DNA of 64,000 nucleotides. Source: Naegleria gruberi (taxonomy: Eukaryota). Numbering within the stretch: position 1 is the stretch's first letter; each line of letters opens with the position of its first letter. A program made the translations under genes and the position numbers. The notes beneath the pieces are model-generated. The model made no database searches, had not been told where the DNA came from, and saw only the letters and a program-made list of their open reading frames with translations. The DNA lies in the NCBI GenBank assembly GCA_000004985.1, contig GG738857.1; one strand, written 5' to 3'. Below, piece by piece: positions 11,314-56,500 of this stretch.

Positions 11314-12236
11314 NNNNNNNNNNNNNNNNNNNNNNNNNNNNNNNNNNNNNNNNNNNNNNNNNNNNNNNNNNNNNNNNNNNNNNNNNNNNNNNNNNNNNNN
11401 NNNNNNNNNNNNNNNNNNNNNNNNNNNNNNNNNNNNNNNNNNNNNNNNNNNNNNNNNNNNNNNNNNNNNNNNNNNNNNNNNNNNNNNNNNNNNNNNNNNN
11501 NNNNNNNNNNNNNNNNNNNNNNNNNNNNNNNNNNNNNNNNNNNNNNNNNNNNNNNNNNNNNNNNNNNNNNNNNNNNNNNNNNNNNNNNNNNNNNNNNNNN
11601 NNNNNNNNNNNNNNNNNNNNNNNNNNNNNNNNNNNNNNNNNNNNNNNNNNNNNNNNNNNNNNNNNNNNNNNNNNNNNNNNNNNNNNNNNNNNNNNNNNNN
11701 NNNNNNNNNNNNNNNNNNNNNNNNNNNNNNNNNNNNNNNNNNNNNNNNNNNNNNNNNNNNNNNNNNNNNNNNNNNNNNNNNNNNNNNNNNNNNNNNNNNN
11801 NNNNNNNNNNNNNNNNNNNNNNNNNNNNNNNNNNNNNNNNNNNNNNNNNNNNNNNNNNNNNNNNNNNNNNNNNNNNNNNNNNNNNNNNNNNNNNNNNNNN
11901 NNNNNNNNNNNNNNNNNNNNNNNNNNNNNNNNNNNNNNNNNNNNNNNNNNNNNNNNNNNNNNNNNNNNNNNNNNNNNNNNNNNNNNNNNNNNNNNNNNNN
12001 NNNNNNNNNNNNNNNNNNNNNNNNNNNNNNNNNNNNNNNNNNNNNNNNNNNNNNNNNNNNNNNNNNNNNNNNNNNNNNNNNNNNNNNNNNNNNNNNNNNN
12101 NNNNNNNNNNNNNNNNNNNNNNNNNNNNNNNNNNNNNNNNNNNNNNNNNNNNNNNNNNNNNNNNNNNNNNNNNNNNNNNNNNNNNNNNNNNNNNNNNNNN
12201 NNNNNNNNNNNNNNNNNNNNNNNNNNNNNNNNNNNN
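11314..12236. other. Assembly gap (923 N)
   Basis: n run. The ORF-track entries translated as X across this span are artefacts. Confidence 0.99.
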
Positions 12237-18828: not shown

Positions 18829-19993
18829 NNNNNNNNNNNNNNNNNNNNNNNNNNNNNNNNNNNNNNNNNNNNNNNNNNNNNNNNNNNNNNNNNNNNNNNN
18901 NNNNNNNNNNNNNNNNNNNNNNNNNNNNNNNNNNNNNNNNNNNNNNNNNNNNNNNNNNNNNNNNNNNNNNNNNNNNNNNNNNNNNNNNNNNNNNNNNNNN
19001 NNNNNNNNNNNNNNNNNNNNNNNNNNNNNNNNNNNNNNNNNNNNNNNNNNNNNNNNNNNNNNNNNNNNNNNNNNNNNNNNNNNNNNNNNNNNNNNNNNNN
19101 NNNNNNNNNNNNNNNNNNNNNNNNNNNNNNNNNNNNNNNNNNNNNNNNNNNNNNNNNNNNNNNNNNNNNNNNNNNNNNNNNNNNNNNNNNNNNNNNNNNN
19201 NNNNNNNNNNNNNNNNNNNNNNNNNNNNNNNNNNNNNNNNNNNNNNNNNNNNNNNNNNNNNNNNNNNNNNNNNNNNNNNNNNNNNNNNNNNNNNNNNNNN
19301 NNNNNNNNNNNNNNNNNNNNNNNNNNNNNNNNNNNNNNNNNNNNNNNNNNNNNNNNNNNNNNNNNNNNNNNNNNNNNNNNNNNNNNNNNNNNNNNNNNNN
19401 NNNNNNNNNNNNNNNNNNNNNNNNNNNNNNNNNNNNNNNNNNNNNNNNNNNNNNNNNNNNNNNNNNNNNNNNNNNNNNNNNNNNNNNNNNNNNNNNNNNN
19501 NNNNNNNNNNNNNNNNNNNNNNNNNNNNNNNNNNNNNNNNNNNNNNNNNNNNNNNNNNNNNNNNNNNNNNNNNNNNNNNNNNNNNNNNNNNNNNNNNNNN
19601 NNNNNNNNNNNNNNNNNNNNNNNNNNNNNNNNNNNNNNNNNNNNNNNNNNNNNNNNNNNNNNNNNNNNNNNNNNNNNNNNNNNNNNNNNNNNNNNNNNNN
19701 NNNNNNNNNNNNNNNNNNNNNNNNNNNNNNNNNNNNNNNNNNNNNNNNNNNNNNNNNNNNNNNNNNNNNNNNNNNNNNNNNNNNNNNNNNNNNNNNNNNN
19801 NNNNNNNNNNNNNNNNNNNNNNNNNNNNNNNNNNNNNNNNNNNNNNNNNNNNNNNNNNNNNNNNNNNNNNNNNNNNNNNNNNNNNNNNNNNNNNNNNNNN
19901 NNNNNNNNNNNNNNNNNNNNNNNNNNNNNNNNNNNNNNNNNNNNNNNNNNNNNNNNNNNNNNNNNNNNNNNNNNNNNNNNNNNNNNNNNNNNN
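18829..19993. other. Assembly gap (1165 N)
   Basis: n run. Confidence 0.99.
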
Positions 19994-25881: not shown

Positions 25882-26895
25882 ATGTTTAAAAGAAATTACA
25901 AAAAAATGCAAGAAATCAACGAGCACCCATTCGACGATTTGATCATTAGTAAAATATTAGAATATCTATCCTCATCCACATTAGAAATCATCAATTTAGG
26001 ACAAGTTTGCAAATCATTCCGAAGAATTTGTCTTCATCCTTCCACAAAATTATCATTTTCCAATTATTTATCCAAAAATCGTGATGAAAATTGTGATGAA
26101 TACAATGATCATGATACAGTGAAGGAATATTTACCATTTAATTGGGAAGCATGTTTCGATTTTTTACAATATTTCACAACGATTGATTTGGGATGTCAAT
26201 TTGGGATGCCAGATGCAATGGATTATATTGTTAATGTGGCACTTGCATCGACGAAAATTGAAGAATTATATTTGAAAAATTGTGAAATTTATGCATTGAC
26301 TAATGTAAATTGTAAAATATCGAGATTGGAATGTTGTCAAGTTGTCGTTCCATTACAATTTGAAAGTATTATTCAATATTTTCCTTATTTGAAACATTTA
26401 AAAGTTGAAGATTGTCATGTCCAGTTGGAATGTTCACCAAAATTGCAAATGATATGCGAATGCTTGGAAAGTTTAGTTGCAATTGATTCGTTGAAAGATT
26501 TATTTACAATTAATATTCAATTTGGTCAATTAACAGAATTGACATTTATTTCAACGTTTGAACAGGAAATGTATTTTGAGAAAATTGATTATTGTATGAA
26601 TTATGAAAATTTTCCAAAATTGAAAAAGTTAACTTTGAAAGTTCCATCGAAATGCATTCAATTAGATTTACCAATTTTGGAAGAATTAGTATTGGAAGCA
26701 GAAATAGATTATTATGATTTTCGATCAATGCACACAATGCTTAAATTAGAAAATTTAAAAAAATTGGAAACTACTTCTTTCGATGTATGCAAAGCCAATT
26801 TAATTGCTCCAAATTTGGAAACTTTGATCATTAGAGACGAATTTAACATTGTAAAATCGTGGAATATTAATCCGATTCCCCAAATCGATAAATAA
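25882..26895 (+). CDS. F-box-like / LRR-like protein
   Basis: The N-terminus HPFDDLIISKILEYLSSSTLEIINLGQVCKSFRRICLHP is F-box-like. The C-terminus has repetitive Leu-rich segments. 337 aa. Confidence 0.55.
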   Translation: MFKRNYKKMQEINEHPFDDLIISKILEYLSSSTLEIINLGQVCKSFRRICLHPSTKLSFSNYLSKNRDENCDEYNDHDTVKEYLPFNWEACFDFLQYFTTIDLGCQFGMPDAMDYIVNVALASTKIEELYLKNCEIYALTNVNCKISRLECCQVVVPLQFESIIQYFPYLKHLKVEDCHVQLECSPKLQMICECLESLVAIDSLKDLFTINIQFGQLTELTFISTFEQEMYFEKIDYCMNYENFPKLKKLTLKVPSKCIQLDLPILEELVLEAEIDYYDFRSMHTMLKLENLKKLETTSFDVCKANLIAPNLETLIIRDEFNIVKSWNINPIPQIDK

Positions 26896-27181
26896 TTTTA
26901 TTGTAGTTTCTTTCCCTGGGGAACCCCTTTAATTTCTTAGAGTTCAACTATTACTAGAGCTAAACCTAATATCATACCAATGATTGATCTATTCGATTGT
27001 GTGTTTAATTGTTACATGTAAACTTGATCACTTTCCACTTTCTTTCCATTACAACATGCATTTTAGAAGAATATTTGATTTATCAATTTTCAATGAAACA
27101 TTGAGTTTTACGAGGTTTCACACATTCTGAGAAATAAATAGAGTGCCTCTTCCTAATTGGGAATGAGACAAGAGAAAAAAA

Positions 27182-30100
27182 ATGCAACAATTTGTAAAGC
27201 GAGCAAAGAGTAGGGAGAATGGAAGGGATGGCCAACTGTAAGTGTTTTGGTGTGTTTAGAATAATAATTATTGATGTTTCGAATAGTGGTCAAAGAGGTG
27301 AAAATGGTCATGTAAGTTAAAACTAAAGATATTCATCATACATTATTGATGTGCATAGACTGGAAGACACGGTGCTCACGGATATGGTCATGGAGGGAAT
27401 GGCTATCACGGAGAAAGGTAAATTAAACTAATATTTAACTAAAATATCTTCAAAAAGAGGAGGCAATGGATTTAACGCAACCAATGCTTGGCATGGTGAG
27501 AATGGTGAAGATGCAAAACACGGCAAAGATATTCACATTCTATTGGAAGGTGATGTCATGTCAACTGTTGTTGTGAGTGGTGACTTTAGTTATGGAGGAG
27601 GTGTTTGTGAGATGGTTTGTGTATCAGAGGGAGGAAAGTAAGTTTAGCTTTAAATGCACATGTATTGAAATTAATATTCGAAAGTGGTGGAAATGGTGGA
27701 AAGTAAGTTTGGTTTTGTGAATAATGTTATTAATTTACAAAAAAAATAGTGGTGGAAAGGGAGGCGAGTAAGTAGAAGAATTCCTATAGTTCTGTATTCT
27801 AATTTCGAATAGTGGTGGAGCTGGTGGTCAGTAAGTTTTACTTTAATTTCTATTCGAAATGAACATTTGAAAAAGAGGTGGAATAGGAGGTGCTGGTTCA
27901 CAAGGTAAAAGAGGTGCACCAGGTCAAAATGGAGAAAGGTAAGCAATTATTCTTAACATTAGATTCTAATATTAATATTCGAAATGTAGAGGTGGAAATG
28001 GTGGCAAGTAAGTTTTACATTTTGCAATTATACGAATCAATTCAGTGGTGGAGAGTAAGTTTTTCAAAATTTCATTAAAATTCACTTTTCAAGTGGTGGA
28101 GAGTAAGTAAGAAAGTCTTTTTTAAACTTTATTCGAAACTAATTAGTGGTGGCCATGGAGGAAAGTAAGTTGTTCCTTAATTTTGTAAACAATTTTTACA
28201 CAAACAAGTGGAGGAAATGGTGGCAGGTAAGTTGAAAAAAGGAAATTTCATATTCAAATAACCTTTCGAATAGAGGAGGAAATGGTGGAAATGGAGGATC
28301 AGTCTATATTGACACCACCAATCCATATTTATTGAATTATATTGAAGGAACGAGTATTTCAGGAAGAGGAGGATCTGGTGGTAGAGGTGGAAATGGAGGA
28401 ATTGGTGGCAGTGGTGGAAGGTAAGTGAACTTTCGAATATGTTGAAATTGCAACCTGTTTAAAAGTCCTGGAGAGGGTGGACATGCTGGAAAGGGAGGTG
28501 ATCCAGGTGATCCAATCACCATTACTAGAACTCTTCCAGATAATAGAGTTCACACAGAAATTAAGAGATTTCATCATGGACCAGATGGATCAAAAGGTTA
28601 CAGAGGAAAACAAGGAAAATCTGGAACTAATGGTCAATCAGGACAATCAGGACAACAAGGAACTGATGGAGTTTGTGGAGCTGTCATGTACAGAGTTCTT
28701 GATCCATTCACTAAAATGGTCATTGAACAATCAGCTAAAAAGTACAAACTCAAAGTTATTGATTTTTCATTTGTTCCATTAATTGATGATGGAATTTTGG
28801 AACCAGGAGAACAAGCCAAGATTACAAATTTTGTAATTAAGAATGAAGGTGGATTGACTGCTCCTGCAGGTGCTGAGGTTTCATTGACTGGTGATGGATT
28901 TACTGTTTGTAATATTCCAAAATTCATTCTTCCACAACCAATCGTGCCAGGTCAAGTAATTACTATCACTGATCAGGAATTTCTTGTCCGAGTTGAAGAA
29001 AGAATGAATAAGGAACCAAGAAATTTTGGATCTTTTGCTGCCAATGTCAGATTGAATACTCCAACTAAATATTATGATAAGAAACATGCTAAGGGATGTG
29101 AGAAGAATTTCACAGCAAGACTTCCATTGGCAATTGAATATGCCAACTGTACAAAGGCAATGGATAAACTTCAAAGAGGAATAATGAAGGTTGGTGTGAA
29201 GAATTTGGCAACATTACCTTATGGATCTATGAGTCAATCGATGGTTTGTCAAGTTGGATTGAAAATTGATTTTGATCCAAGAATGGTTGTTTTCCCAGAG
29301 TTGATTCCTAATGCAACAATGGTTGAACCAACCAGTCTCTATATTGAAATTCCAAATTTAATGGCTCTTTCATGTTTGGAACATAATATTGAGTTTGCAT
29401 TCACTGATAGAGTTAATTATTTCGACACCTTGTACTATTCCATTTCTCTTATTTATAAGGGAGAACAAATTGAAAAGCATCTGATGGATGTGAGAATGGC
29501 TCCTTCCTATATGCCTTCACCTCAAGGAGAAAATACATACGATGTCATTTTCTTTACTAATTCTCATATTAATAATGTGGAATTTATGAATTATATGAGA
29601 ATATTTGATGGATTAGCATTGAGAGTTAATTTCTGGGATATTCAAATTAATCAAGGATTGAGTTTCTTCAATAATGATGGAAGAACCAGACATCCAATTA
29701 CTTGGACCAATGATAATCAAGGAAAGGTAATTGTTTATCCAATGGCAAATGATATGGAATATCAACTCATGTTCTCCCATGATATTGTCAATATTGTAAA
29801 GCCAAATCCAGAAAACAAATTATTAGAAGGTGGAATAATTCTAGTTGGTAATGTAACCAATCAACAATTTATTGCCCATTTGAGAACTGCTTCAACAGAA
29901 GTCAAAATTCCAGACGATTCCATCTCTGACAGCTATGTCATTTCAAAGCCAGTTCGTGATCATTTAACTCAAAAATCCAATGAATACATTAAGAAGGTTG
30001 CAGTTACCAAACCAGCTCAGAATTTAGTACTTGGCAGAACTGTTTTCAATCCAAAGAAAATTGGTTCATTCAAAACGCTTTTAGGAGAAGCTTATTATTT

Positions 30101-30833
30101 GGAATTTGGTTTGTTGGCCAATGCCAATTGTTATGCCATCAATTCCAACTCTGCAAACTTCCTCTCACAACAAAGATCAGCCACTCTGTCCACACTCTCC
30201 GGTGTAGGTCAAATGACCATGTCAATCTTGTTGGCTCTTCCACTTCCAAAATTGTTGTACATTTTGAGAAATCCAACAGAATGGCTCAAGACAACAAGAT
30301 TTTACAATGAGTACAAATCTACTGAACAAGGATATTACGAATTGATTGCCTGTGCCTTGTATTGTAAGATTTATCATTCCATTATTTTGAATAGCAAATT
30401 GGAAGAGAATTTGAATTATATTTTACAAGAGTTTGAAAAGCAAACCTCCAATTATGAGAAGAATCCTGAAAAGATTGCCATTTGTGAAGCTCTCTTGTTG
30501 GCTTTCCATCATTTGGGTTCTCAAATCAAGTGGAAAGTTTCACTTTTTAAGAGCTTACCACAAAAAGATTCGTTTGACAAGTTTATGGAATCATTTTCAC
30601 AAGTTTTATCAAAGATTATTGGAGATCCTAATCATGTTAAGAATTTAAAGAAGAATCTTCCAACTATGATTAAGGATTTGGGAAGAGAAAATTATCTTCA
30701 CATTTTGGCAAGTATTCACAGACTTGTCTATGATCAATATCATAAGGCCATTGAGGATGAAATAAGATTGAAGGAAAAGACAGGTCTATTCGCATCAGTT
30801 TCGACTGATTCTCCTGTTAATTATTTAGATTAG
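27182..30833 (+). CDS. Collagen-like / Gly-rich repeat protein with a 780-aa C-terminal domain of unknown family. 15 exons: 27182-27237, 27287-27311, 27359-27417, 27458-27637, 27685-27702, 27750-27767, 27813-27830, 27876-27938, 27990-28007, 28046-28054, 28094-28102, 28147-28164, 28209-28226, 28274-28420, 28466-30833.
   Basis: Each exon ends at a GTAAGT, GTAAAT or GTAAGC donor and starts after a TAG, AAG or CAG acceptor. The phases are consistent throughout and run into ORF 28686-30833. Exons encode G-X-Y-like and GGNGG units (GQRGENGH, GAPGQNGE, GKSGTNGQSGQSGQQGTDG). Confidence 0.65.
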
Positions 30834-30886
30834 TTTTATAAATTCCCATTCCAATTTTATAGACGAAAGAATTTCATTGCATTATT

Positions 30887-31696
30887 TTACTTTCTCTTAT
30901 AAAGAATCATAAAGTTCTTTCTCAATTTAGCTTGTTCAACCTGTTTCTTAAACTCAACTCTTCTCTTTCTCCAATCAAATTCGTATTTGAGATTCTCTGA
31001 TTGCATATTGAGCTTGGCAGTTTCCAATTGAAGTAAATCTCTCTCGGAAAGAATGTACTTTAACTTGATGTTTCCACAAACTCTATCATGATATTTCATA
31101 TACTTGTTTTTAAAGTGTTTGTGGCATTTTGGACATTCTTCCAAACAATCGGCAGTTTTCTTCTTGTTTACACTCTTCTTTAGGAAGATTTTCTTTGGAA
31201 TGCACTCAGTTGAGTGAGATTTCTTGCAGGTTACTTGTTCTTCTCCTTTAGAATAGGCCTTCTTCAATTGCTCCTTGTAAAAGTTTCTTGATTCATAGTA
31301 CATTTCTTCCAATTGAGCAACTCTTCCTTTCATCATCATTAGTTCACTTTCTAATTGTTTCTTCTCCCTTAATAAAGCTTGAATAAACTCCATTTGCTTC
31401 ATTTCAGAGCTTTCACATTTTGTAACTGTTGGTTCTTGAATTTGAGGAACTTTTTCAACATTTTCATTAATTTCATTCTTGAAAATCTTTTTTTCTCTTT
31501 TCTTTTCGGAAGCTTTCAATGCCAAATCAACACGAATTGACTTTCTCTTCAAATAGGGTTGTTTCTTAACCCAAACCTTCTTTTGGATGACAACATTATC
31601 AAAATCATGACAATTTTCTTCATTAAAATGTTGACAATTGACTTGTTCTGGTTGACAAACTTCCAATTCTCCTTCCGTTGATTCAATAAAAGTCAT
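30887..31696 (-). CDS. Coiled-coil protein with a C-terminal C2HC-type zinc finger
   Basis: 269-aa ORF. Heptad-rich central region; CPKCHKHFKNKYMKYHDRVC fits the CxxC...H...C pattern. Confidence 0.55.
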   Translation of the reverse strand: MTFIESTEGELEVCQPEQVNCQHFNEENCHDFDNVVIQKKVWVKKQPYLKRKSIRVDLALKASEKKREKKIFKNEINENVEKVPQIQEPTVTKCESSEMKQMEFIQALLREKKQLESELMMMKGRVAQLEEMYYESRNFYKEQLKKAYSKGEEQVTCKKSHSTECIPKKIFLKKSVNKKKTADCLEECPKCHKHFKNKYMKYHDRVCGNIKLKYILSERDLLQLETAKLNMQSENLKYEFDWRKRRVEFKKQVEQAKLRKNFMILYKRK

Positions 31697-34051: not shown

Positions 34052-37000
34052 TTAGGCATTGTAAATTTTCTCTAAACGATCAACAATTTCTTGAATATTA
34101 GGACGTGTAGAAGGAACGGGAGACCAACTTTGTCTAATTAATTCAGTCAAATCGAAAATTCTTTCGTACTCATCTGGAGAATCGAATTCCTTACACCATT
34201 CTTTGCATTCCTCCAAATCTGTGAATGGAATAATTGGTCTCAAATTATTTTCACAAATTCCCTTGTGAAGTTGATAGGAAGATTCAACATTGCTTGGTTC
34301 TTCTAATCTTAATTTTTGTAAAACTCGTGAGTTTCTACTCATGTATGGATCGGTACATTCGAATAGTACTTGCCAAATGATAATGGAGAAACTGTAAATG
34401 TCGATTGCTCTGGCATCTTCACCAAGTATATCGCTATTACTGGAAATCATTTCAGGACTTAAATAGTAACAGGTTCCTATTTGACTTGTGACAGAAGTTC
34501 TGTAATTGGATAACATCTTGCTGAGACCAAAATCACAAAGCTTACAAACTCCAAATCTGTCAATCAAAATATTGGCAGGTTTCAAATCTCTATGCAAAAT
34601 TGTTGGAGATAATGTATGAAGATAGAGAATTCCATTAGCAACATTTGTCAAAATTTCCAATTTTTGAGTGAGAGAATACTGAACTGATTGATTTTGCATT
34701 TCTGTTACTAAATTATCCAAACTCTTCTCCAAACACTCCATAGCAATGAATCTCTTTGTAGGACTCGAAGAAATTCCGTAAAATGTGATAATGTTCGGAT
34801 GTCTTAATTTCGAGAGAATGATAGCCTCCATGAGGAAATCCTTTTCAGAAATATTCATGTTGTTCATGTCAAATACCTTGACAGCAATAATGTTATTCTT
34901 CCAACGAGTTTGGAATACAGAACCAATTCCTCCTGAACCCAATCTCTTGATTGGTTTGTCCATGTTTAATTGTTCAATTGGAATAATGAATGAAGAATTG
35001 TCAGAGTTGTTAATGTCCATAAATTCAAAGGTTTCTCCAACTTCAGTTTGAGATAGTAATCTTTCGTCCAACATTTGATCCATTTCAATAATTTTCTTTT
35101 GCTTTCTATACTTGGAAAAGAAGATTACCATTGTTAACATGGAGAAACAAAGTAACAATAAAACAAATATACTAAATCCAACAATGGTTCCAATCAAAAC
35201 ACTGTTATGTTCACATTCCTTTCCAAAGCTATTACTGCATTGACAAATATCTGGAGCAACACACAAATTTCCATTGCATGCATCAGCTCCTGATTTTCCA
35301 AAGCAGGTGACCATTCTGCAATCTGTTCCAATATATCCATAGGAGCAGGAGCAAGTATCTGGTTTAAGACATGTTCCACTAGAATTGGAGCATACAGCCG
35401 AACTAGAACTTGAAATGCCAAAACAAACTGGATACTGACATTGATTTCCACTATATTGAGGGGGGCAAGAACAGGTATCACTATCTAAACATATTCCATT
35501 TCCGCTACATACTTTGGAATCCAAACTGGTCCACTCAAAACATTTTGGAATGCATCTAGTTTTCTCTGGATTAAGCACATAATTATTTTCACAGAATGGA
35601 ACTAGTTGTTTCACTACATTATTCAACGAGTCAGATACGAATATCTTTCCAGTATTATCCACAAATGATACGCCTTCTGGCTTTGAGAGAGGAACTTCCA
35701 CTGCTGTCAATGATGATTCAATAAGATAACTGGCAACAATATCGACAACATCAACTGTTCCGTTACCAGCCATTGAATAAATATATCTCTGGCCATTAAA
35801 ATTAAACACTCTTCGTAATCTTCCATTATTCTTATCACAAAAAACAAATTCTTCATAAGTTGGTGGAAGTAACATTATACATGTTGGTGAATTGATATCT
35901 GCATTGATGGCAAGACCATTATCTCCAGAAAATCCAATATTTCCAGTTCCACAAACTGTACTAATTGTTCCATCTTTGGAAGAAATCTTTCGAATTCTAT
36001 GATTGTTGGTATCGCTGAAATAGATATCTTCATTTAGGGGTGAAACTGCAATTCCAGATGGAAATGCCACAGTAGCACTTGTAGCTGGACCATTCTCTCC
36101 ATGGAATCCATAATCTCCAGTTCCTGCAATTGTACTAATAACTCCAGTCATTCCATCAATCTTTCTAATAATATTATTCAAATTATCTGTTATGTAAATG
36201 TTTCCACTTTTTGCTCTGACCATGCTTAGAGGAATAGCAGATGATTGATTGGCTGGAATATTATCACCAAAACCTCCAGAAATGGTTGTTAGTAAATCAT
36301 CCTTAATTGAGTACTTTCTAATCTTGTTATTCGACGTGTCAGCAATATAAATTACTCCATTTCTATAGTCCAATGCCTTTGGATATTTCAATTTGGCAGA
36401 TCTTCCTCGTGATGGTTCTGTTTCTTGAACATCATTGGCTCCACCAATAATCGTCTTGATTATTTTAGAATCTGCCCATCTTATTCTGCTATTGATAGTG
36501 TCAGCTATTGCGATTGGTTTTGGTAATGCACTAGCATACTGATTTTCGGATGAACTATCAGCAGTAGAAACAACAGAATATGGGTGAAAGAATTTTGCCA
36601 TTAATGGATCACCATTGTCACCACTGAAACCAGCTCCGAGTTGTGAGTCACCTGCAGTTACTGAGTACATCACTGGTCCATCACCATCACTAGTAAATCT
36701 CAATCTCTTAATTCGATTATTGTAAGTATCTGCTACATAAAATGCAAAACATTTATCACATCCGTGCACATCATGAGGTGTATTATAGTATCTACTATCA
36801 CTGCTTGCAACTCCCATTCCAGATATGCTAAGGATAGGGAAAATGGAAGATTCGTTCAGAGTGGCATTGAATTTGATAAATCTAATTCTGTGATTTAAAC
36901 TGTCAGCAAAGAGTATACCTTGTTGTTTTACAGGAATGTTAACTATGGTCATTCCTCTTGGCTAATTAATTATCAATTGATTGGTTGGAAAAAATTGTTT

Positions 37001-39044
37001 CATTTCAACTTACCTCATTCAACAGAGATTGTGTTGCATCATTAGAATTTCCATTATATCCAAATTGATCTGGAATACCAGCTAGTATTGTTATTACATT
37101 GGTTTCTAGATTGATTTTTTTGATGGCATGTCTTCCAGTTTCTGAAAATATTAAATATCTCGCTCCAGTGCTCGTCACATAATAAGCAAGACCAGTTGGT
37201 TTCTTCACATTCTTAACAATTACCTTGACATTATTAGTATTATCAATGAGCTTGATATTGTTATTGTATGTGTCAGATACGAAAATACCCATATCTGTGG
37301 CAACAATTCCCTCTGGCTGATTGTAGGTGACTGAGGAGGCATTCATATAAGTGGGCATTCTTGCAGTATTGTTAGGTCTCAAAGCATTTCCCACCACCAA
37401 TGATATTTGTCTTGCTTTTGAATAAATATTTTGGGAAACTCTGATAATGGCATCACTGTAAACTCCACTTTGTTCATTCAAAATGTAATATTCAATTGTG
37501 TCACCATTGACCACTCCAACACTAAGAGACATTGGTTTGGATGACAGGGAATAGTTTAAAGAAGAATCAATATAAGTGGAAGACTCCAAATTGACAAATC
37601 CAGGATTAAGAGTACGAACAGTTCGAGTTGTCAAATCATAATATCTAACTGCTCCAAAGTTTGATTCACTAATAAATAGTACCTTCTCCAATTTGTTTGT
37701 ATTCTCATTTAAATGATAATCGAAAGTAAGACCAGTTGGCTGTCTCAATGGGAACTTTATCCCTTTCATCCCATCCACTCTCGGTATTTGATCGCCATTT
37801 GAAAATACTGGAGAAATCATCTTGGTTTCCAAATTGAGAATTTTGATATTTTTCGAGTCTACCATTAAAACAGACTTTCCATCTGGAGAAATTATAAAAT
37901 TAGAAGAAAAAACAAAATGACAATCAAATGCTTGAGTTATTCCATCTTTGCATTCTTCTGCTGAGGAATCACTTTTTCCTGCCAGTATTTCCAGCTTTAC
38001 GGATCCATCTGTATTATTGATGGTCAACCTTTTCAATAAGCTCGAAGTATCAGTGAAATAAACCATATCCAATTCGTTCATAGTATAAGCTGATAAATAA
38101 GAGGGACAACTATAATCATATTCATCATCATAAGGACAAGTGGACATTGAAACTGGCAGAAGTGGAAATTCATGCCCATACATTGTTGTAATATTACCAT
38201 TCTGGAGAATCTTTCTGAACCTATTGGATCCCCTTTCTGAAATGTAAATCTCATTCTTGTCATTTAGTGAAATACTGTTAGGGGACAATAATGTTGAACT
38301 AATTGCAGGAAATTCGCTATCTAGATAAACTCCAGCACCTCCACAAATTCTATAAACAGTACCATTTTGAATCTTTCTCAGAATATTCAAATCCAGAACG
38401 ATAACATTCGCCTCTTCCACAGAATTCACCACTTTCGGATAAACAACCATATCACTCAATGAAAGGAATTTGATTTCACTTGCTGGAATCACATCTGGGG
38501 CCGCAAAATTCAAATTACCTGCCAGAATTCCAGCAATATGGTCAATAATTCCTGTCTTGGTTCGAATCCTCCTAACAGAAAACAAATCCACCAAATAAAT
38601 CACATCATACAAGTTTCCACTACTTTCGTCCTTTTCTGCAACCACATACAAATGATTCACAAATATAAACGTTGCATTTTTCACTGGTCCTCCATTTCCC
38701 TCAATACCTCTACCAGGAGATTCACTTCCTGTAATAAATTCCTGTTGTCCAGTTACAAAATCCAATTTAGCAATGACAACCTGATTCACGACATAATAAA
38801 ACGTATTTTCATATTGAACGGAAGGAGCTAACCCAACAAGTGAAAAGGTTTTTGTTTCTAATTTTGATGGGTAATCTAATTTTCCAATAATTGATTCTGC
38901 TTGATATTTAACTTGTGATTTTAAGAATCGGATAGTTTCGTTCAAATTACACGTCGAAAAGTGAGAGAAAATCATCAGAAGGCTGATGAATAAAAACATT
39001 CGGCATAGTGAGAATCGATTCTGCCGTAAACATTGTGTTGACAT
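34052..39044 (-). CDS. Receptor-like protein kinase of about 1645 aa with 2 exons (39044-37014, 36961-34052). It has a signal peptide, two large NHL-repeat (beta-propeller) ectodomains, an EGF-like Cys-rich module, a TM helix and a C-terminal Ser/Thr-type kinase.
   Basis: Signal peptide MFLFISLLMIFSHFSTC. At least 8 NHL-like repeats (N..IRK/IRF motifs). Cys-rich segment CSGNGICLDSDTCSCPPQYSGNQC.... TM helix IGTIVGFSIFVLLLLCFSMLTMVIFF. Kinase motifs HRDLKPANILID, DFGLS and SPE. A 52-nt intron (GTAAGT...AATTAG, phase 0) joins ORFs 37005-39044 and 34052-36952. Confidence 0.7.
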
Positions 39045-46507: not shown

Positions 46508-46710
46508 TGTTTTTGTTTTTTATGAAATGAATTGAATTTGCAGGAGTGAAGTTGAAATGGCGCCAAAAGTTTGATTTCATCAGACATCACGTGCTGGCAC
46601 TTCAGGTGATGAAGAAAGGTGAACTGTATTCATGAATAAGGGTTAATTTAAAAAAAAATGCAACCACATCACCTCCCACACCTTGATAGATTATTATTAA
46701 TTGAAAAAAA

Positions 46711-46939
46711 ATGGCCGATCACAAAATGGTCTGCAAATTGGGTTTGTGTTTTGAGATGCGAGATTTAAAATTATTTATTAAATGTGTGATGATTACAGGC
46801 TGATAGGAAATATGTGTTGGAAGCTGTTAAACAAAATGGGTTGGCACTTGAAAATGCCGATGAATCTGGAAGCTGTTAAACAAAATGGATTGGCAATTGA
46901 ATTTGCTGATTCATCATTAAAAAAGATAGAGAAATTGTA
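46711..46939 (+). pseudogene. Disrupted 5' region of DUF4116-kinase copy 1. The mini-exon 1 homologue is out of phase, a DUF4116 repeat unit is truncated, and a poly-A run carries a 1-nt deletion.
   Basis: Compared with copy 2 (59873 onward), this region shows three frame disruptions. The repeat-encoding frame switches from frame 2 to frame 0 and back to frame 2 around 46860 and 46905. Confidence 0.45.
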
Positions 46940-49699
46940 TTGGAATCTGTTAAACAAAATGGATATGCATTTAAATATGCCGATGAGTTATTGAAAAAAG
47001 ATGAAGAGTTTATATTGGAAGTTGTTAAACAAGATGGATTGGCAATTAAACATGCTGATTCATCATTACAAAAAGATAGAGAAATTGTATTGGAAGCTGT
47101 TAAACAAAATGTATATGCACTTAAATATGCAGATTCATCATTGAAAAAAGATAGAGAAATTATATTGAAATCTGTTAAGAAAAATGGATTGACACTTGAA
47201 TTTACTGATTCATCATTGAAGAAAGATAGAGAAATTGTATCGGAAGCTGTTAAACAACATGGATTGGCAATTGAGTTTGCTGATTCATCATTTAAAAAAG
47301 ATAGAGAAATTGTATTGGAAGCTGTTAAGCAAAATGTGTATGCAATTGAATTTGCTGATTCATCATTGAAGAAAGATAGACAATTTGTACTAGAAGCTGT
47401 TACGAAAAATGGATTAGTACTTGAATATGCTGATTCATCATTGAAGAAAGATAGAGAATTTGTATTAGAATCTGTTACGAAAAATGGATATGCATTTCAA
47501 TATGCTGTTTCATCATTTAAAAAAGATAGAGAAATTGTATTGGAAGCTGTTAAACAAAATGGAGCAGCGCTTAAATATGCTGATGAATCAGTTAAGGGAG
47601 ACAGAGAAATTGTATTGGAAGCTGTTAAACAAAATGGATTGGCATTTAAATATATTTATTCATCATTGAAAAAAAATAGAGAAATTATATTGGAAGCTGT
47701 TAAACAAAATGGATCAGCACTTAAACATGCTGATTCATTTTTGAAGAAAGATAGAGAAATTGTATCGGAAGCTGTTAAACAAAATGGATTGGCACTTCAG
47801 TTTGCTGATTCATCATTTAAAAAAGATAGAGAAATTGTATTGGAATCTGTTAAAAAAAATGGATCAGCACTTGAATATGCTGATTCATCATTTAAAAAAG
47901 ATAGAGAATTTATTTATTTGCTATTTAAATTGAACAAAGAAAATGCAAGAAACTTCTCACCATCTATATCCAAAACCATTGAAGAATGCTTAAATATTCA
48001 GAGAAAGCTGTCAAGCAATATAACTGAACAATACTCCAAAATATTTATGGATGAAAAGGATTTATATTATGCTATTGAATTAACAAGTCTCTTTAATCCA
48101 ACACCAAAAGGTACAATATTCAATTTCAATTCTATCTATACACCAATATTTATTGAAAAATTGATTATTTTTCAAATATTGAAACAAATGAACCATTCAG
48201 AATTGTCTAATGATATTATTGCTCTTATTGATTTACAAAGTACCAAAGCTAACTATTATTTATATTGTTTCAGATTGGACAAATTTCTTGAAGATAATCC
48301 CTGTCAATCAACAAGAATGAAAGATTTGAAGAATATTGTGGAACAAGTTGCAACAAACTTTGAAACGTCATTTTATACAAAACAGGAAATTAATGAAATT
48401 ATGATTTTTGCCAACAAGTGGTTTGAAAATGAGCAAACATTTGAAAATTACAAACAAATAATTTGTAAATATAATGAGCTGAGAGGAGATTTATCAAAAG
48501 TATTCAAATCTCTTAATTATTTCTATAATTATTTCAAAAATGATTATGATTTCATTTCAGTATTAGGATATGGAGGTGAAGGTGTTGCATTCAAAGTATT
48601 TCATAAAAGTAGTAAATCATTAAGGGCTTTAAAATTGAAATATGACCCAGAGGAATCTGAAGAATCAACAAAAGAAACCATTAATTTATTGAAAAGAACA
48701 GACATTGAAGGAAAGATCAAATGTTTTGATTGTGAAATTATTCAAAATCATTTATATTCAGTGATGGAACTTGGAGAGGAATCATTATCAAATTACATTT
48801 CAAGAAATAATGAAAGTGAAATTTATAGAAATGGATTCATTATTAAGGAAAAACTAATTGAAATTCTTGATATATTTATCAAAGTATTGAACTCAGTTCA
48901 ATCAATTCATGATCACAATATTTTACACAGAGATTTAGATCCTCAAAATATTGTCAAAGTTCAAGATTTATACAAAATTATTGATTTTGAAACATCAAGA
49001 GTGATCAAGACAGGTAATTCAATTACAATTGCTCGTGGAAAGTTTGCATACATGTCTCCTGAAGTTTCACATGATAATTATTCTGATGATTTATTGAAAA
49101 GTGGTAATGATGAAAAGCTTGCTCACAATGTTGGACAAATTACCATTTCATGTGATATATTTTCATTGGGATGTATTTTGTTGAAATTATTAACCAATTG
49201 TCCTTTGCAACTATGTTCAACATTTCTGAATGATTCAGATGTCTCTAAATATAATGATAATTACTTGTATTTTAGTGGACATGGAAAATATTTCTATACA
49301 GTTGTGACAACAACAGAGGGAGAAATGAAATTACATTATGCAATTGAAAAACTAATCAATGAAACAATTAATCCAGATTTAGGAGTGAATAACATATTGA
49401 TTAGAAGCATTATTAGCATGATTCAAAGAGATTCATCAAAAAGATTGGATTGTTATTCTCACAAGTTAACAATTGAGAATATTTTGAAATTTTTGAAAGG
49501 AGAAATCAAAGATATCACTTTCAATATTGAAAAACAAGTTGGAGAATTGAAGAAAATATCACCATTAAGAAGTTACTCTCAACTTGTAGAGGAAAATACC
49601 AAACTATTAGAAAGAATTAAATTATTGGAAGAGAACTCTTTATTGGAACGAATTAAAATGTTGGAAGAGGAAATAATAAATCTAAAAACAGACCAATAA
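46940..49699 (+). CDS. DUF4116-repeat protein with a C-terminal atypical protein kinase domain, copy 1. The long ORF is intact from the TTG at 46940, but no in-frame upstream ATG is available.
   Basis: About 11 tandem 29-aa DUF4116-type repeats (LEAVKQNGLALxYADSSLKKDREIV). The kinase part has GYGGEGVAFKV, HRDLDPQNIV, DFETSR and YMSPEV, followed by a C-terminal coiled coil. Confidence 0.6.
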   Translation: MESVKQNGYAFKYADELLKKDEEFILEVVKQDGLAIKHADSSLQKDREIVLEAVKQNVYALKYADSSLKKDREIILKSVKKNGLTLEFTDSSLKKDREIVSEAVKQHGLAIEFADSSFKKDREIVLEAVKQNVYAIEFADSSLKKDRQFVLEAVTKNGLVLEYADSSLKKDREFVLESVTKNGYAFQYAVSSFKKDREIVLEAVKQNGAALKYADESVKGDREIVLEAVKQNGLAFKYIYSSLKKNREIILEAVKQNGSALKHADSFLKKDREIVSEAVKQNGLALQFADSSFKKDREIVLESVKKNGSALEYADSSFKKDREFIYLLFKLNKENARNFSPSISKTIEECLNIQRKLSSNITEQYSKIFMDEKDLYYAIELTSLFNPTPKGTIFNFNSIYTPIFIEKLIIFQILKQMNHSELSNDIIALIDLQSTKANYYLYCFRLDKFLEDNPCQSTRMKDLKNIVEQVATNFETSFYTKQEINEIMIFANKWFENEQTFENYKQIICKYNELRGDLSKVFKSLNYFYNYFKNDYDFISVLGYGGEGVAFKVFHKSSKSLRALKLKYDPEESEESTKETINLLKRTDIEGKIKCFDCEIIQNHLYSVMELGEESLSNYISRNNESEIYRNGFIIKEKLIEILDIFIKVLNSVQSIHDHNILHRDLDPQNIVKVQDLYKIIDFETSRVIKTGNSITIARGKFAYMSPEVSHDNYSDDLLKSGNDEKLAHNVGQITISCDIFSLGCILLKLLTNCPLQLCSTFLNDSDVSKYNDNYLYFSGHGKYFYTVVTTTEGEMKLHYAIEKLINETINPDLGVNNILIRSIISMIQRDSSKRLDCYSHKLTIENILKFLKGEIKDITFNIEKQVGELKKISPLRSYSQLVEENTKLLERIKLLEENSLLERIKMLEEEIINLKTDQ

Positions 49700-50392
49700 G
49701 TGATAAATATTAAAAAACGAAAGTAAATGCAAGAGAGTTTCCCACACATTCATACTTCTTGCTAGAGATGCTTCCAAAAAGCCCAATTTTATCCTAAACC
49801 ATAAATCTGTGAAATTCTCTGAAAATTTACAAAATTTATTACATTCATTTTTCACAGATTGATTGGTGGCATGTCCAACTAGGTGTCTCTTCCTTCATTT
49901 CTTCCCCGTTACGTTGCACGGATTGAGGGGGGTTCTGGTCAACCTTACTTAAGAAAATGATCAACCAAATACTAAACAAAACCAAACACATAAACAAAAT
50001 TATTCGTCCGTTGCTTGCAGATACCAAACTACAACGTAAGCTAATTTGGTGGATCTGTTGGGAGAGATTCGGCATTAGGTGTTCCATTGAAGCTATGCTG
50101 GTAGATCCTTGTAAAAGGAGAGTTGGCATGTCATCATTTTAAGGTTTAGTTTTGTTTCTTCTTGAAAATATTCGAAAGATATGAGGTGTTGTGGATCTAG
50201 GTCTGGTCATAACTTGATGTTTTTTGAGTTTGCCGCTCAATCCTAATTAAGTAGCTTGTCAGTAATCAACTTTAAAAAAAAATATCAAAAACAAAACGCG
50301 AGTTTTCGTCATCCATTTATCAATTCTGAATACTAGTAGCCTTCTTCAAAGCCTTTAATTTTTTTCCAACTACAAAATAGTCAAACTGCCAA

Positions 50393-53513: not shown

Positions 53514-56500
53514 ATGACAAAACTTGTTTCTTGCCTTGCCACGGCCATCAAACTCGGAGTGGTGAGCACGTTTGTGTGCTCTTTTGTTTTGTTTCATATT
53601 TATTTCTTTTTGGAGAGATCTCCACCAGCTAATACAAAGCATTTTGATGATATGAATACTAATCCTTTAAATTTTGCTGATTTGAATTTATTTTCCATTC
53701 ATGATGAGAGTAGTATTGTGAAGGAAGGTTCATCGTCATCACCCGGAAAGAATAGAAGAAGACTTGTTCAACCAAAGAGCTTGAGAAAAATTGCTCTTGA
53801 TGAAATCGGAACTGTAAATTCAACCAAAGTTGTGAATGATGGTATGTAATATTTGTACAATAATTTTCAATTAATAATTAATAATTAACAATAATATAAT
53901 ATACAATGCAATATTCATCAATGAATAACAATAATTTTGGAATACTTGGAAAAATCTTCATCATGTGGATTAACAACAGATGACGAAAAAACATATTATA
54001 CTATTTTCCAAATTCATGGAACTCCTGGATCTAGACGATGGAGGTATCCAGTTGATCATCACTTTGTGAGGACTTTCGGAGGAGACAAAAAGTTGAGAAT
54101 TCTCAGTCTTGATAGACCTGGTATTGGTCAATCTACTCCAATAATATCTAGTATTGACTCGGAAGGTAATCCTGTCTATAATTTGGAACCTTTCAATGTG
54201 GATTATTATGAAGCTAGTGCTTTGGACCTTTTATATGTTGTGAGAAAGTTGAGATTAAAGCACTTTTCACTCTTTGCTTATTCTCAAGGTGCTGCTCATG
54301 CTACAATGCTTTCACACTATTTGGAACAATTAAAGAAGAGAGAACGTGGTGAAAAGGTAACTCATGCTCACTTGAAGAGCACTGAAAGATTCCACAATGA
54401 CTTGATGACCAAGATTTTATTGTCAAAGGATTCCGAAAAGTATTGGACTTTTGAAAATGGAGTTTCAAACTATACATCATCTACTGAATGGTCATGGAAA
54501 GATGTTACCATCGACAGAGTTGTCTTGATGGCACCACAAGGTTTCTATTCAGAAAAGGTCAGACAAGCTCTCTTGAAAGAGCAAGACATGACCATTCCTG
54601 AGCACAAGAGATGGTCTTCAAACCTTCATCAAATTTATTCTTTCCACAATTATCAACCACCACTCGGAACTAATATTGTTCATGCTGTATACAAGATGGT
54701 TTCACAATTGGGATTTATCACTAATATCAAATATTGGGAAGAAAATATGAAATTCATGCTTGATCCTTTGGGAAGAGATTCATTCATTTTCCATGATGAA
54801 GCTACTGGATGGAAGAAGGCTTTTAACAATACCATGATTGATACCTACAGATTTACTACCATGACTTTCCTTGTAGAAGTTTATAATAGTTATTATTTCA
54901 CTGAAAATTATGGACCTAACTTTGATATTTCCTTGAAGAATATTCCAACATGGATTTTGAAAGCTGAGGATGATATTCTTGTTCCAATTGAAGCTTTTAA
55001 TACCTTTGTTGAAAAGGTTTGCACCAATAAGGAAACTTGTAATGTCACTGTTGCTTCCAACACTACCCATTTCCAAATTTTCAAGAATTATTACACACAA
55101 TCTATTCAACACCTTGTGAAGGGAGTTTTTGGAGAAAGTGTCAGCCTTAGAAAGCCAAGAAGAAAGATTATTGTTATTGGTAGTGGTCTTGCTGGCTTGA
55201 CAGCTACTCTCGAATCTGCCTACACCTACGATCAAGATGTCGTTCTCATTGAAAAGGAACCTAGACTTGGAGGAAACAGTGCCAAGGCAACCAGTGGTAT
55301 GAATGCTATCCAAACAACAACACAAAGAAACGTTCTCGTCTTTGATTCATATACTCACTTTTGGAATGATACTATCAAGTCTTTCACAGGAGGAAAGGTC
55401 TTGTCTACCCTCAAGGAAGCTAGAAGAATCATTAGAAATCCAAAGAATAAGAAGAAGGTTGAAGGAGAGGAAAATTTAATTACAGAAAATTCTTGGAGAA
55501 TTTTGGAAACTCTTGTCAAGGATTCCAAGCCAGCCCTCCAATTCTTACAATCATTTGATGTGAAAATGGATGTTGTTTCCCAATGTGGAGGCCACTCAAA
55601 GCCAAGAACTCACAGAAGCATTAACAAGAGTGACAAACCAATTAACATTGGAAGTGATATTATTTCCAAGCTCTCTGCTTTTATTAGAGAAAAATTGGCT
55701 GAGCGTGTTGTCATCAAGACTGAACATCATGCCATTCAATTAATTTCTGAAGAAAATGATCTTGGAGAAACCATTGTCAAGGGTGTCAAGGTTTTGAACA
55801 TTAAGGAAAATACTACTGAAACAATTATGGGAGATTCTATCATTTTGGCAGCTGGTGGTTATGGTCAAGATAGAGATGGTTATTTGAAGCAATTCGCTCC
55901 ACACTCTGTCAATTTACCATCAACTAATGGTTTGTGGGCAACAGGTGATGGTATAAAGATGGCTGTCAGAGATGTAAACGCATCCTTGATTGATATGGGA
56001 GAAATTCAAATTCACCCTACTGCCTTTGTTGATCCAGCCAATCCTACTGCAATGACATTAATTCTCGCTCCAGAATCATTGAGAGGTTATGGTGCTATTA
56101 TTGTCAATCAAGAGGGTAAGAGATTTGTCAATGAATTGGGTACAAGAGATGAAGTCAGTGATGCCATCTTTGAAAATTGTGGAAGGAAGGAAATTATCCT
56201 CACGTTACTGCCTACATGATTATGAATGAATTTGTTATGAAATCATTTGGTGAAAGCTTGACCTCCTTCTATGCCAAGAAGGGTCTCATTCGTAAATATG
56301 AAAACTTTGAAGATTTGTGTCAAAAGGAAGAATTGAACATGTCTGCCAACTTTTGTGCCAACCTCGAAGATACCATTATTGATTATGATTATTCAGTCGA
56401 TTATAGAAGATCAGATCCTAACTATAAGGATTCATTTGGAAAGACAGTTTTCCCATCTAAATTCAATTTGGAAAAGAGTAAGGAAACTACTCCATTCTTT

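Follow-up and report, generated by a model that had tools for sequence, protein, structure and literature searches.

The 64,000-nucleotide (nt) stretch of Naegleria gruberi DNA analysed here (contig GG738857.1 of assembly GCA_000004985.1), which we call the window, carries on its plus strand a gene whose coding sequence runs from an ATG at 27182 to a TAG at 30831-30833 and is divided into 15 exons by 14 GT-AG introns. The gene has already been annotated in N. gruberi NEG-M as NAEGRDRAFT_79042 (XP_002679508.1 / EFC46764.1, UniProt D2V8W8), a "predicted protein" of 1001 amino acids (aa), and 13 of the 14 introns and both 9-nt exons are already part of that public model. The subject of this study is the array of mini-exons in the 5' part of the gene, which together encode a glycine-rich region built of GGX triplets. 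The features of the gene are listed below. Sequence differences in the list are relative to L001, an environmental metagenome contig of an N. gruberi-like strain (ENA ERZ929261, run ERR1078381, PRJEB11402).

27182-27237, plus strand: exon 1, 56 nt, from the start ATG, encoding MQQFVKRAKSRENGRDGQL; the N-terminus resembles that of the Naegleria lovaniensis protein in length and sequence.
27238-27286, plus strand: intron 1, 49 nt, phase 2, GTAAGT...TTCGAATAG.
27287-27311, plus strand: exon 2, 25 nt, with one substitution, synonymous in the spliced frame.
27312-27358, plus strand: intron 2, 47 nt, phase 0, with two substitutions.
27359-27417, plus strand: exon 3, 59 nt, G-X-Y sequence, rich in His and Gly.
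27418-27457, plus strand: intron 3, 40 nt, phase 2, donor GTAAAT; a 5-nt insertion in L001 would cause a frameshift in coding sequence.
27458-27637, plus strand: exon 4, 180 nt, the end of the G-X-Y stretch, beta-strands and the first GGN.
27638-28273, plus strand: the mini-exon array, in which introns 4-13 (all phase 2) alternate with exons 5-13.
27685-27702, plus strand: exon 5, 18 nt, GGNGGN, with a canonical AG acceptor and a GTAAGT donor; not in the public model.
27750-27767, plus strand: exon 6, 18 nt, GGKGGD.
27813-27830, plus strand: exon 7, 18 nt, GGAGGQ.
27876-27938, plus strand: exon 8, 63 nt, GGIGGAGSQGKRGAPGQNGER.
27990-28007, plus strand: exon 9, 18 nt, GGNGGN.
28046-28054, plus strand: exon 10, 9 nt, GGD.
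28094-28102, plus strand: exon 11, 9 nt, GGD.
28147-28164, plus strand: exon 12, 18 nt, GGHGGN.
28209-28226, plus strand: exon 13, 18 nt, GGNGGR.
28274-28420, plus strand: exon 14, 147 nt, GGNGGNGGS, the conserved VYIDTTNPYLL and the second (GGX)n, with three synonymous changes.
28421-28465, plus strand: intron 14, 45 nt, phase 2, with two substitutions and a 1-nt indel.
28466-30833, plus strand: exon 15, 2368 nt, encoding 789 aa plus stop: a G-X-Y stretch and DUF7932, followed by two further beta-sandwich domains, an alpha/beta domain and a helical C-terminus, with 16 synonymous and two non-synonymous changes.

The spliced coding sequence is 3024 nt long (1007 codons plus stop), contains no internal stop and remains open across all 14 junctions. 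From first to last, the introns measure 49, 47, 40, 47, 47, 45, 45, 51, 38, 39, 44, 44, 47 and 45 nt. Twelve of them begin with GTAAGT, one with GTAAAT and one with GTAAGC, and all 14 end in AG. Intron 2 is in phase 0, and intron 1 and introns 3-14 are in phase 2, each array intron cutting after the second base of the X codon. An earlier note on this DNA, made from the letters alone, had described 14 introns of 38-51 nt within 1.3 kb, near-identical donors and a common phase for the array exons, and all of this is found in a single open spliced frame. The same note gave exons 5-13 a length of 9 or 18 nt each. This is true of eight of them, which consist of GGX units, and fails for exon 8 (the lengths are 18, 18, 18, 63, 18, 9, 9, 18 and 18 nt). 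All eight exons of 9 or 18 nt are flanked by phase-2 introns and fall within the size and symmetry of micro-exons (at most 36 nt and a multiple of three), and the length of every exon from 4 to 13 is an exact multiple of 9 nt, that is, of whole GGX triplets. A short upstream open reading frame (ORF; ATG AGA CAA ... TAG) at 27163-27210, in a different frame, extends across the main ATG at 27182; in L001, an insertion of 3 nt falls within it.

Such a structure is not a product of chance, because 12 of the 21 copies of GTAAGT on the plus strand of the 64-kb window fall inside the 1.3-kb intron region of the gene, where 0.38 would be expected, because the exon lengths are multiples of 9 nt, and because read-through of any intron meets a stop after two to three codons, a retained intron bringing in a TAA. 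The boundaries of the introns, and the restoration of a conserved frame by their removal, identify them from the DNA as spliceosomal GT-AG introns.

The comparison with L001, which matches positions 26882-31155 of the window at 98.4% identity, agrees with these boundaries. All five indels within the gene lie in predicted introns (3, 5, 8, 11 and 14), and none of them has a length divisible by three. In the spliced frame, 21 of the exon substitutions are synonymous and three are non-synonymous, with exons 1, 2 and 14 among those affected, and divergence reaches 2.7% in the introns versus 0.8% in the exons. Mini-exons 5-13 carry no substitution at all, and introns 5, 8, 11 and 12 hold seven differences, including three 1-nt indels; taken alone, the unchanged mini-exons are weak evidence, with an estimated p of ~0.085 given the seven differences in the intervening introns. 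A search with the C-terminal exon leads to the metagenome protein P0001, in whose 90% cluster the NEG-M protein (P0003) is placed. P0001 is a prokaryote-style gene call of 813 aa on L001, which starts out of frame inside exon 14 and traverses intron 14, so that its N-terminus, MEESVAVVEGKWTFEYIENATCFKS, is false.

After the near-identical P0001, the closest homologue is the N. lovaniensis protein XP_044550565.1 (C9374_002317; P0008), with a profile E of 7e-96 and 35% identity. This protein maps exactly to a genomic locus, L003, with 17 exons, including exons of 9, 27, 63, 9, 9, 9, 9 and 18 nt as well as a doubtful 5-nt exon. The introns of L003 are 47-180 nt long, and those of its array are in phase 2 except for the two beside the 5-nt exon. 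The 63-nt exons of the two species are orthologous (GGIGGAGSQGKRGAPGQNGER in N. gruberi and GGQGGDGGPGLNGKPGEHGAN in N. lovaniensis), and intron 14 occupies a shared aligned position, between GGS and PGEGG in N. gruberi and between GGR and PGNGG in N. lovaniensis. The triplets that are followed by an intron differ between the two species. We consider it most likely that the array predates the separation of N. gruberi and N. lovaniensis. N. fowleri, although the nearer relative of N. lovaniensis, is not represented among the named proteins hit by the N. lovaniensis orthologue, and may have lost the gene or carry it unannotated.

The encoded protein belongs to a large family. Pfam DUF7932 (PF25560) is found at aa 313-402 (E=5.6e-10, 40.1 bits versus a cut-off of 27), and an exhaustive profile search collects 506 representatives (clustered at 50% identity) from across the eukaryotes, of which 81 reach E<=1e-30. 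Named DUF7932 members come from Naegleria, Willaertia, Vannella, sponges, bdelloid rotifers and liverworts. The homology is full-length and follows a common domain order: G-X-Y, beta-strands, (GGX)n, IDTxNPxLL, (GGX)n, G-X-Y, the DUF7932 beta-sandwich, an alpha/beta domain and a helical tail. In an alignment of 56 sequences, both the domain order and a DPxLL motif are conserved. The "780-aa C-terminal domain of unknown family" that had been proposed must be amended on both counts, as the terminal exon encodes 789 aa and the Pfam match assigns it to DUF7932. Residues 1-290 are 35% glycine and contain G-X-Y and GGX triplets around the conserved IDTxNPxLL motif, and splicing of the mini-exons rebuilds the domain that is conserved in the family, namely a beta-strand, (GGX)n, IDTxNPxLL and (GGX)n. 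The AlphaFold2 model has a predicted local distance difference test score (pLDDT) of 86.5 over the full length, 88.8 over residues 1-290 and ~90-97 in the glycine-rich parts. In this model, the N-terminal glycine-rich region has neither helix nor strand according to DSSP, and it is followed by three beta-sandwich domains (~aa 286-560), the alpha/beta domain and the helical tail. The glycine-rich part is predicted to adopt a compact single-chain fold with no obvious collagen triple helix.

The earlier description of the N-terminus as collagen-like holds in one respect, its Gly-X-Y periodicity, and a family member from Amphimedon carries the name "collagen alpha-1(XXVII) chain-like". The other properties speak against it. 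Pfam Collagen (PF01391) scores 23.5 bits versus a gathering score of 27.2. The proline richness and the secretory leader of a collagen are both missing: the first 290 aa contain seven prolines, and the maximum Kyte-Doolittle hydropathy in the first 50 aa (15-aa window) is -1.33, which indicates no hydrophobic leader. A sequence-profile search of the PDB returns only collagens, matched through the periodic G-X-Y stretch. In the confidently predicted monomer, AlphaFold2 packs the G-X-Y stretches as a single chain, which argues against a triple helix, with trimerisation as a possibility. Some relatives add PH, SAM, C2, FYVE or WW-like modules. Because of the absence of a leader, the small number of prolines and these modules of the relatives, an intracellular scaffold-like role appears likelier than that of an extracellular collagen, and, judged by its sequence, the protein probably acts inside the cell.

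From four independent lines, all indirect but in agreement (the indels and synonymous changes relative to L001, the array in N. lovaniensis, the conserved domain of the spliced peptide and its AlphaFold2 fold), we conclude that the gene model is real and that the original observation is confirmed. The public model departs from it at a single point: the NEG-M protein lacks the GGNGGN of exon 5 and is otherwise identical and still in frame. When exon 5 is included, seven GGX triplets precede the 63-nt exon, as they do in N. lovaniensis, and this count mildly favours the 14-intron model with exon 5. Such a model would mean a correction of XP_002679508.1, from which exon 5 is missing. The earlier warning that such tiny exons are prone to mis-annotation has proved justified, both by the Joint Genome Institute (JGI) model without exon 5 and by P0001, the call that runs through intron 14; prokaryote-style gene calling on eukaryotic metagenome contigs truncates genes of this type. 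Neither the 1007-aa nor the 1001-aa product could be retrieved in its exact form from an encoding contig, and no mention of DUF7932 or NAEGRDRAFT_79042 was found in the literature.

Relatives of the gene indicate whether the array is ancestral or derived. In three metagenome eukaryotes (P0014, P0009 and P0011), the first (GGX)n region is an uninterrupted ORF. The sponge Oopsacas minuta encodes it in a single-exon gene (LOD99_14153), and in Marchantia polymorpha (MPTK1_7g11680, 12 exons) the whole first (GGX)n region and the NPELL motif lie within one 404-nt exon. The 4-exon gene of Willaertia magna (ABK040_007802) has one intron in this region, in phase 1. Among the members examined, the division of the first (GGX)n into mini-exons is confined to the two Naegleria genes. 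The glycine-rich segment measures 55-73 aa across the family (73 aa in N. gruberi with exon 5 and 67 aa without it), and homologues that encode it in one exon have a segment as long as that of Naegleria. Because homologues without the array have an equally long repeat, the repeat would have pre-dated the introns, and the array would represent a gain in the Naegleria lineage and not an ancestral state. On this comparison of sequences, the array looks like a local burst of intron gain in the Naegleria lineage. The earlier note had seen in it a mechanism of repeat-protein growth; growth is not shown, as the intron-less homologues carry a (GGX)n of the same length.

The introns had also been called clearly paralogous, a claim that we do not sustain. 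In a MAFFT alignment of the introns, the only conserved positions are GTAAG(T) and the final G. When GTAAGT and the last 3 nt were masked, the core local-alignment score was 13.73 versus 12.83 for shuffled sequences, and a fraction of 0.007 of the shuffles equalled or exceeded the observed value; when GTAAGT and the last 13 nt were masked, the scores were 11.40 and 11.44, and the fraction was 0.53. The excess similarity under the narrower mask is due to the motif TTCGAA[AT], the only shared element, which occurs in eight of the 14 N. gruberi introns (1, 4, 6, 7, 8, 11, 13 and 14; 0.3 in shuffles). Correspondingly, TTGGAAT or TTCGGAT occurs in eight of the 16 N. lovaniensis introns (L003 introns 2-6, 9, 14 and 15; 0.6 in shuffles). 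The motif, which can be written TT[CG]G[AG]A[AT], is mostly situated 1-16 nt upstream of the AG. Because it has been kept across species whose introns are otherwise unalignable, it is more likely to be a splicing signal than a relic of duplication, and it may represent a branch-site-like Naegleria signal near the 3' splice site. The same motif is present in other candidate introns of the window (33214, plus strand; 40104, minus strand).

The account that we favour, with a probability of roughly 0.8, is that NAEGRDRAFT_79042 is a DUF7932 member with a phase-2 mini-exon array that is specific to Naegleria among the relatives examined and that, we think, was gained by unit turnover. In the most parsimonious history, unequal recombination or duplication would have carried one intron-bearing GGX unit along a (GGX)n that had its full length beforehand, and intron-less units would have been lost in compensation, so that the process would be one of unit turnover and not of net growth. 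The spread would predate the split of N. gruberi and N. lovaniensis, and the intron bodies would then have diverged to saturation. Introns of 38-51 nt would be recognised by intron definition, which would remove the usual lower limit on exon size, and the neighbouring introns around the 9-nt exons would probably be removed one by one, in sequence.

Several points weigh against this account. Unit duplication lacks direct support, as the intron cores cannot be aligned and the pairing of adjacent introns in length is not significant (permutation p ~0.10). By our own count, shared intron positions within the two arrays are no commoner than expected at such a density. Orthology with the N. lovaniensis gene rests on the best hit and the shared structure, and the loci of the two species show no synteny in their 3-kb flanks. 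The 5-nt exon of L003 (4412-4416, phase 1), flanked by a 47-nt and an 84-nt intron, could be an artefact of annotation. The use of exon 5 is indicated only by its canonical signals and by a triplet count equal to that of N. lovaniensis; the public model omits this exon, and the product has 1007 aa only if it is used. The exact 1007-aa product is absent from the protein collection searched, and two spliced-junction 32-mers were not found in JGI metagenome contigs.

A different history, in which successive tandem duplications of an exon together with its intron lengthened the glycine-rich region, so that the introns are paralogous and the protein repeat expanded along with them, is possible, although we think it improbable. 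It is consistent with the common phase and codon position of the array introns, with the identity of exons 10 and 11 and their immediate flanks over 17 nt (AGTGGTGGAGAGTAAGT), and with the paired lengths of neighbouring introns (47/47, 45/45, 38/39 and 44/44). However, the intron cores fall to the level of shuffled sequences once the splice signals are masked, the TTCGAA motif has a counterpart in N. lovaniensis and looks functional, and the equal length of the intron-less homologues leaves no net expansion to be explained. With a permutation p of ~0.10, the pairing of lengths was dropped as a duplication relic. Another candidate that we dropped is the intronisation of coding repeats: five of the 14 intron lengths are multiples of three, which is the level of chance, and no GGX remnant is present in the introns.

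Unit turnover can also be taken further, to at least ten intron gains at one codon position by the unequal-recombination spread of one 9- or 18-nt unit through a pre-existing array, with the resulting symmetric mini-exons now used combinatorially to vary the length of the glycine-rich fold. In this extended form we believe it to be unlikely. If true, it would constitute a natural and datable intron proliferation without transposable introners, and a protist counterpart of micro-exon genes.

We have little confidence in some ten independent insertions, each at an equivalent favoured target of the pre-existing repeat. Relatives do have an uninterrupted region of equal length, and the intron-bearing triplets do differ between the two Naegleria species, as independent insertion would have it. 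However, the exons show no proto-splice-site consensus (they end in AA, GA, CA or AG and start with T or A), the introns have no introner-like similarity, and no mechanism is known by which more than ten introns would come to occupy one and the same codon position in a span of 600 nt.

It is similarly doubtful that the array serves as a cassette system, in which combinatorial skipping of the symmetric exons 5-13 would yield length isoforms of the glycine-rich domain. Each of exons 5-13 is a whole number of GGX units with a phase-2 intron on either side, so that the frame would survive the skipping of any one, and length isoforms are possible; the public model without exon 5 stays in frame, and the family tolerates 55-73 aa in this segment. 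On the other side, the omission of exon 5 may be an error of prediction, and intron definition with very short introns is generally held to favour intron retention over exon skipping. Intron retention exceeds exon skipping in nearly all of the species studied (PMC6142364).

Finally, although a gene predictor can string GT-AG sites together across repeats of glycine codons and the two junction 32-mers are absent from the JGI contigs, an annotation artefact, with the region being a single long intron, the remnant of a pseudogene or simply non-coding, is extremely improbable in view of the intron-confined indels, the synonymous exon changes (21 versus 3), the separately annotated N. lovaniensis array with its orthologous 63-nt exon, and a spliced peptide that yields a domain conserved in length and motif with a pLDDT above 90.

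The remainder of the window is AT-rich (~32% G+C) and gene-dense, with eukaryotic genes that include Ras/Roc GTPases, an F-box protein and NHL/EGF receptor kinases. Runs of N, which mark assembly gaps, occupy 1357-1406, 11314-12236 and 18829-19993 and account for the bins of 13.9% and 24% G+C and for the overlapping two-strand "long ORFs" at ~9-14 kb and 18.6-20 kb. A scan of the window for non-coding RNA gave neither an Rfam family nor a tRNA. The following genes were also observed.

34052-39044, minus strand: two adjoining NHL-repeat genes, the first of which (34052-36952) also has EGF-like domains and a protein kinase and is receptor-kinase-like.
46700-49700, plus strand: a gene in which many ~40-aa tandem repeats (…DSSLKKDREIVLEAVKQNG.A.E.A…) precede a C-terminus like that of a protein kinase; it accounts for the second of the window's G-skewed stretches.
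53937-56219, plus strand: a single ORF that fuses an alpha/beta-hydrolase domain with a FAD_binding_2 oxidoreductase domain.

A second copy of the array in the G-skewed region at 46-50 kb was considered and dropped, as the region is the unrelated repeat-plus-kinase gene.

The origin of new spliceosomal introns is debated, and the present gene offers a bounded case in which gain by repeat-unit turnover can be tested: about ten minimal introns occur at equivalent codon positions in two Naegleria species, and a sponge, a liverwort and several protists encode the same domain without them. The genome of N. gruberi is reportedly intron-poor, with ~0.7 introns per gene. Consecutive 9-nt exons with introns of ~40 nt, which the spliceosome would have to process, bear on the minimum size of an exon under intron definition. 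Furthermore, DUF7932 is a large and unstudied eukaryotic family with a confidently predicted and unusual glycine-rich fold.

Among known systems, the nearest are the DUF7932 proteins themselves, which share the domain order and full-length homology; their first (GGX)n contains no intron, or one in Willaertia, whereas in Naegleria it is divided into mini-exons. Fibrillar collagen genes have exons derived from a 54-bp unit, 45-162 bp long and in phase 0, and encode a secreted, proline-rich triple helix. In the spider flagelliform silk gene, exon-intron units are iterated, and the introns are kept nearly identical by homogenisation. Like these genes, the Naegleria gene encodes a glycine-rich periodic protein by short exons of the same phase that consist of whole repeat units; unlike them, it has exons as short as 9 nt, phase 2 and dissimilar introns, and its product fails the tests for a collagen.

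Micro-exon genes (MEGs) of Schistosoma likewise contain runs of very short symmetric exons, and in the Naegleria gene, too, skipping would keep the frame. The exons of Schistosoma MEGs are 3-81 bp long, versus 9-18 nt here, their introns reach 5 kb and their products are small, secreted and variable proteins (PMC10526429). In contrast, the introns of the Naegleria gene are 38-51 nt long, and the array encodes part of a folded domain that is conserved and probably intracellular. At the level of the protein, glycine-rich bundles of polyproline-II helices are known from the snow-flea antifreeze protein, the Obg N-domain, phage S16 gp38 and the ALK/LTK glycine-rich domain (bioRxiv 10.1101/2023.11.25.568672). 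The GGX-rich region resembles them in its sequence and in its confidently predicted compact, single-chain form without DSSP helix or strand, and its fold may be such a bundle or a solenoid. NAEGRDRAFT_79042 joins the known DUF7932 family, and its mini-exon architecture resembles those of MEGs, collagen genes and silk genes, but its introns are of another size and unlike one another, and its product is different.

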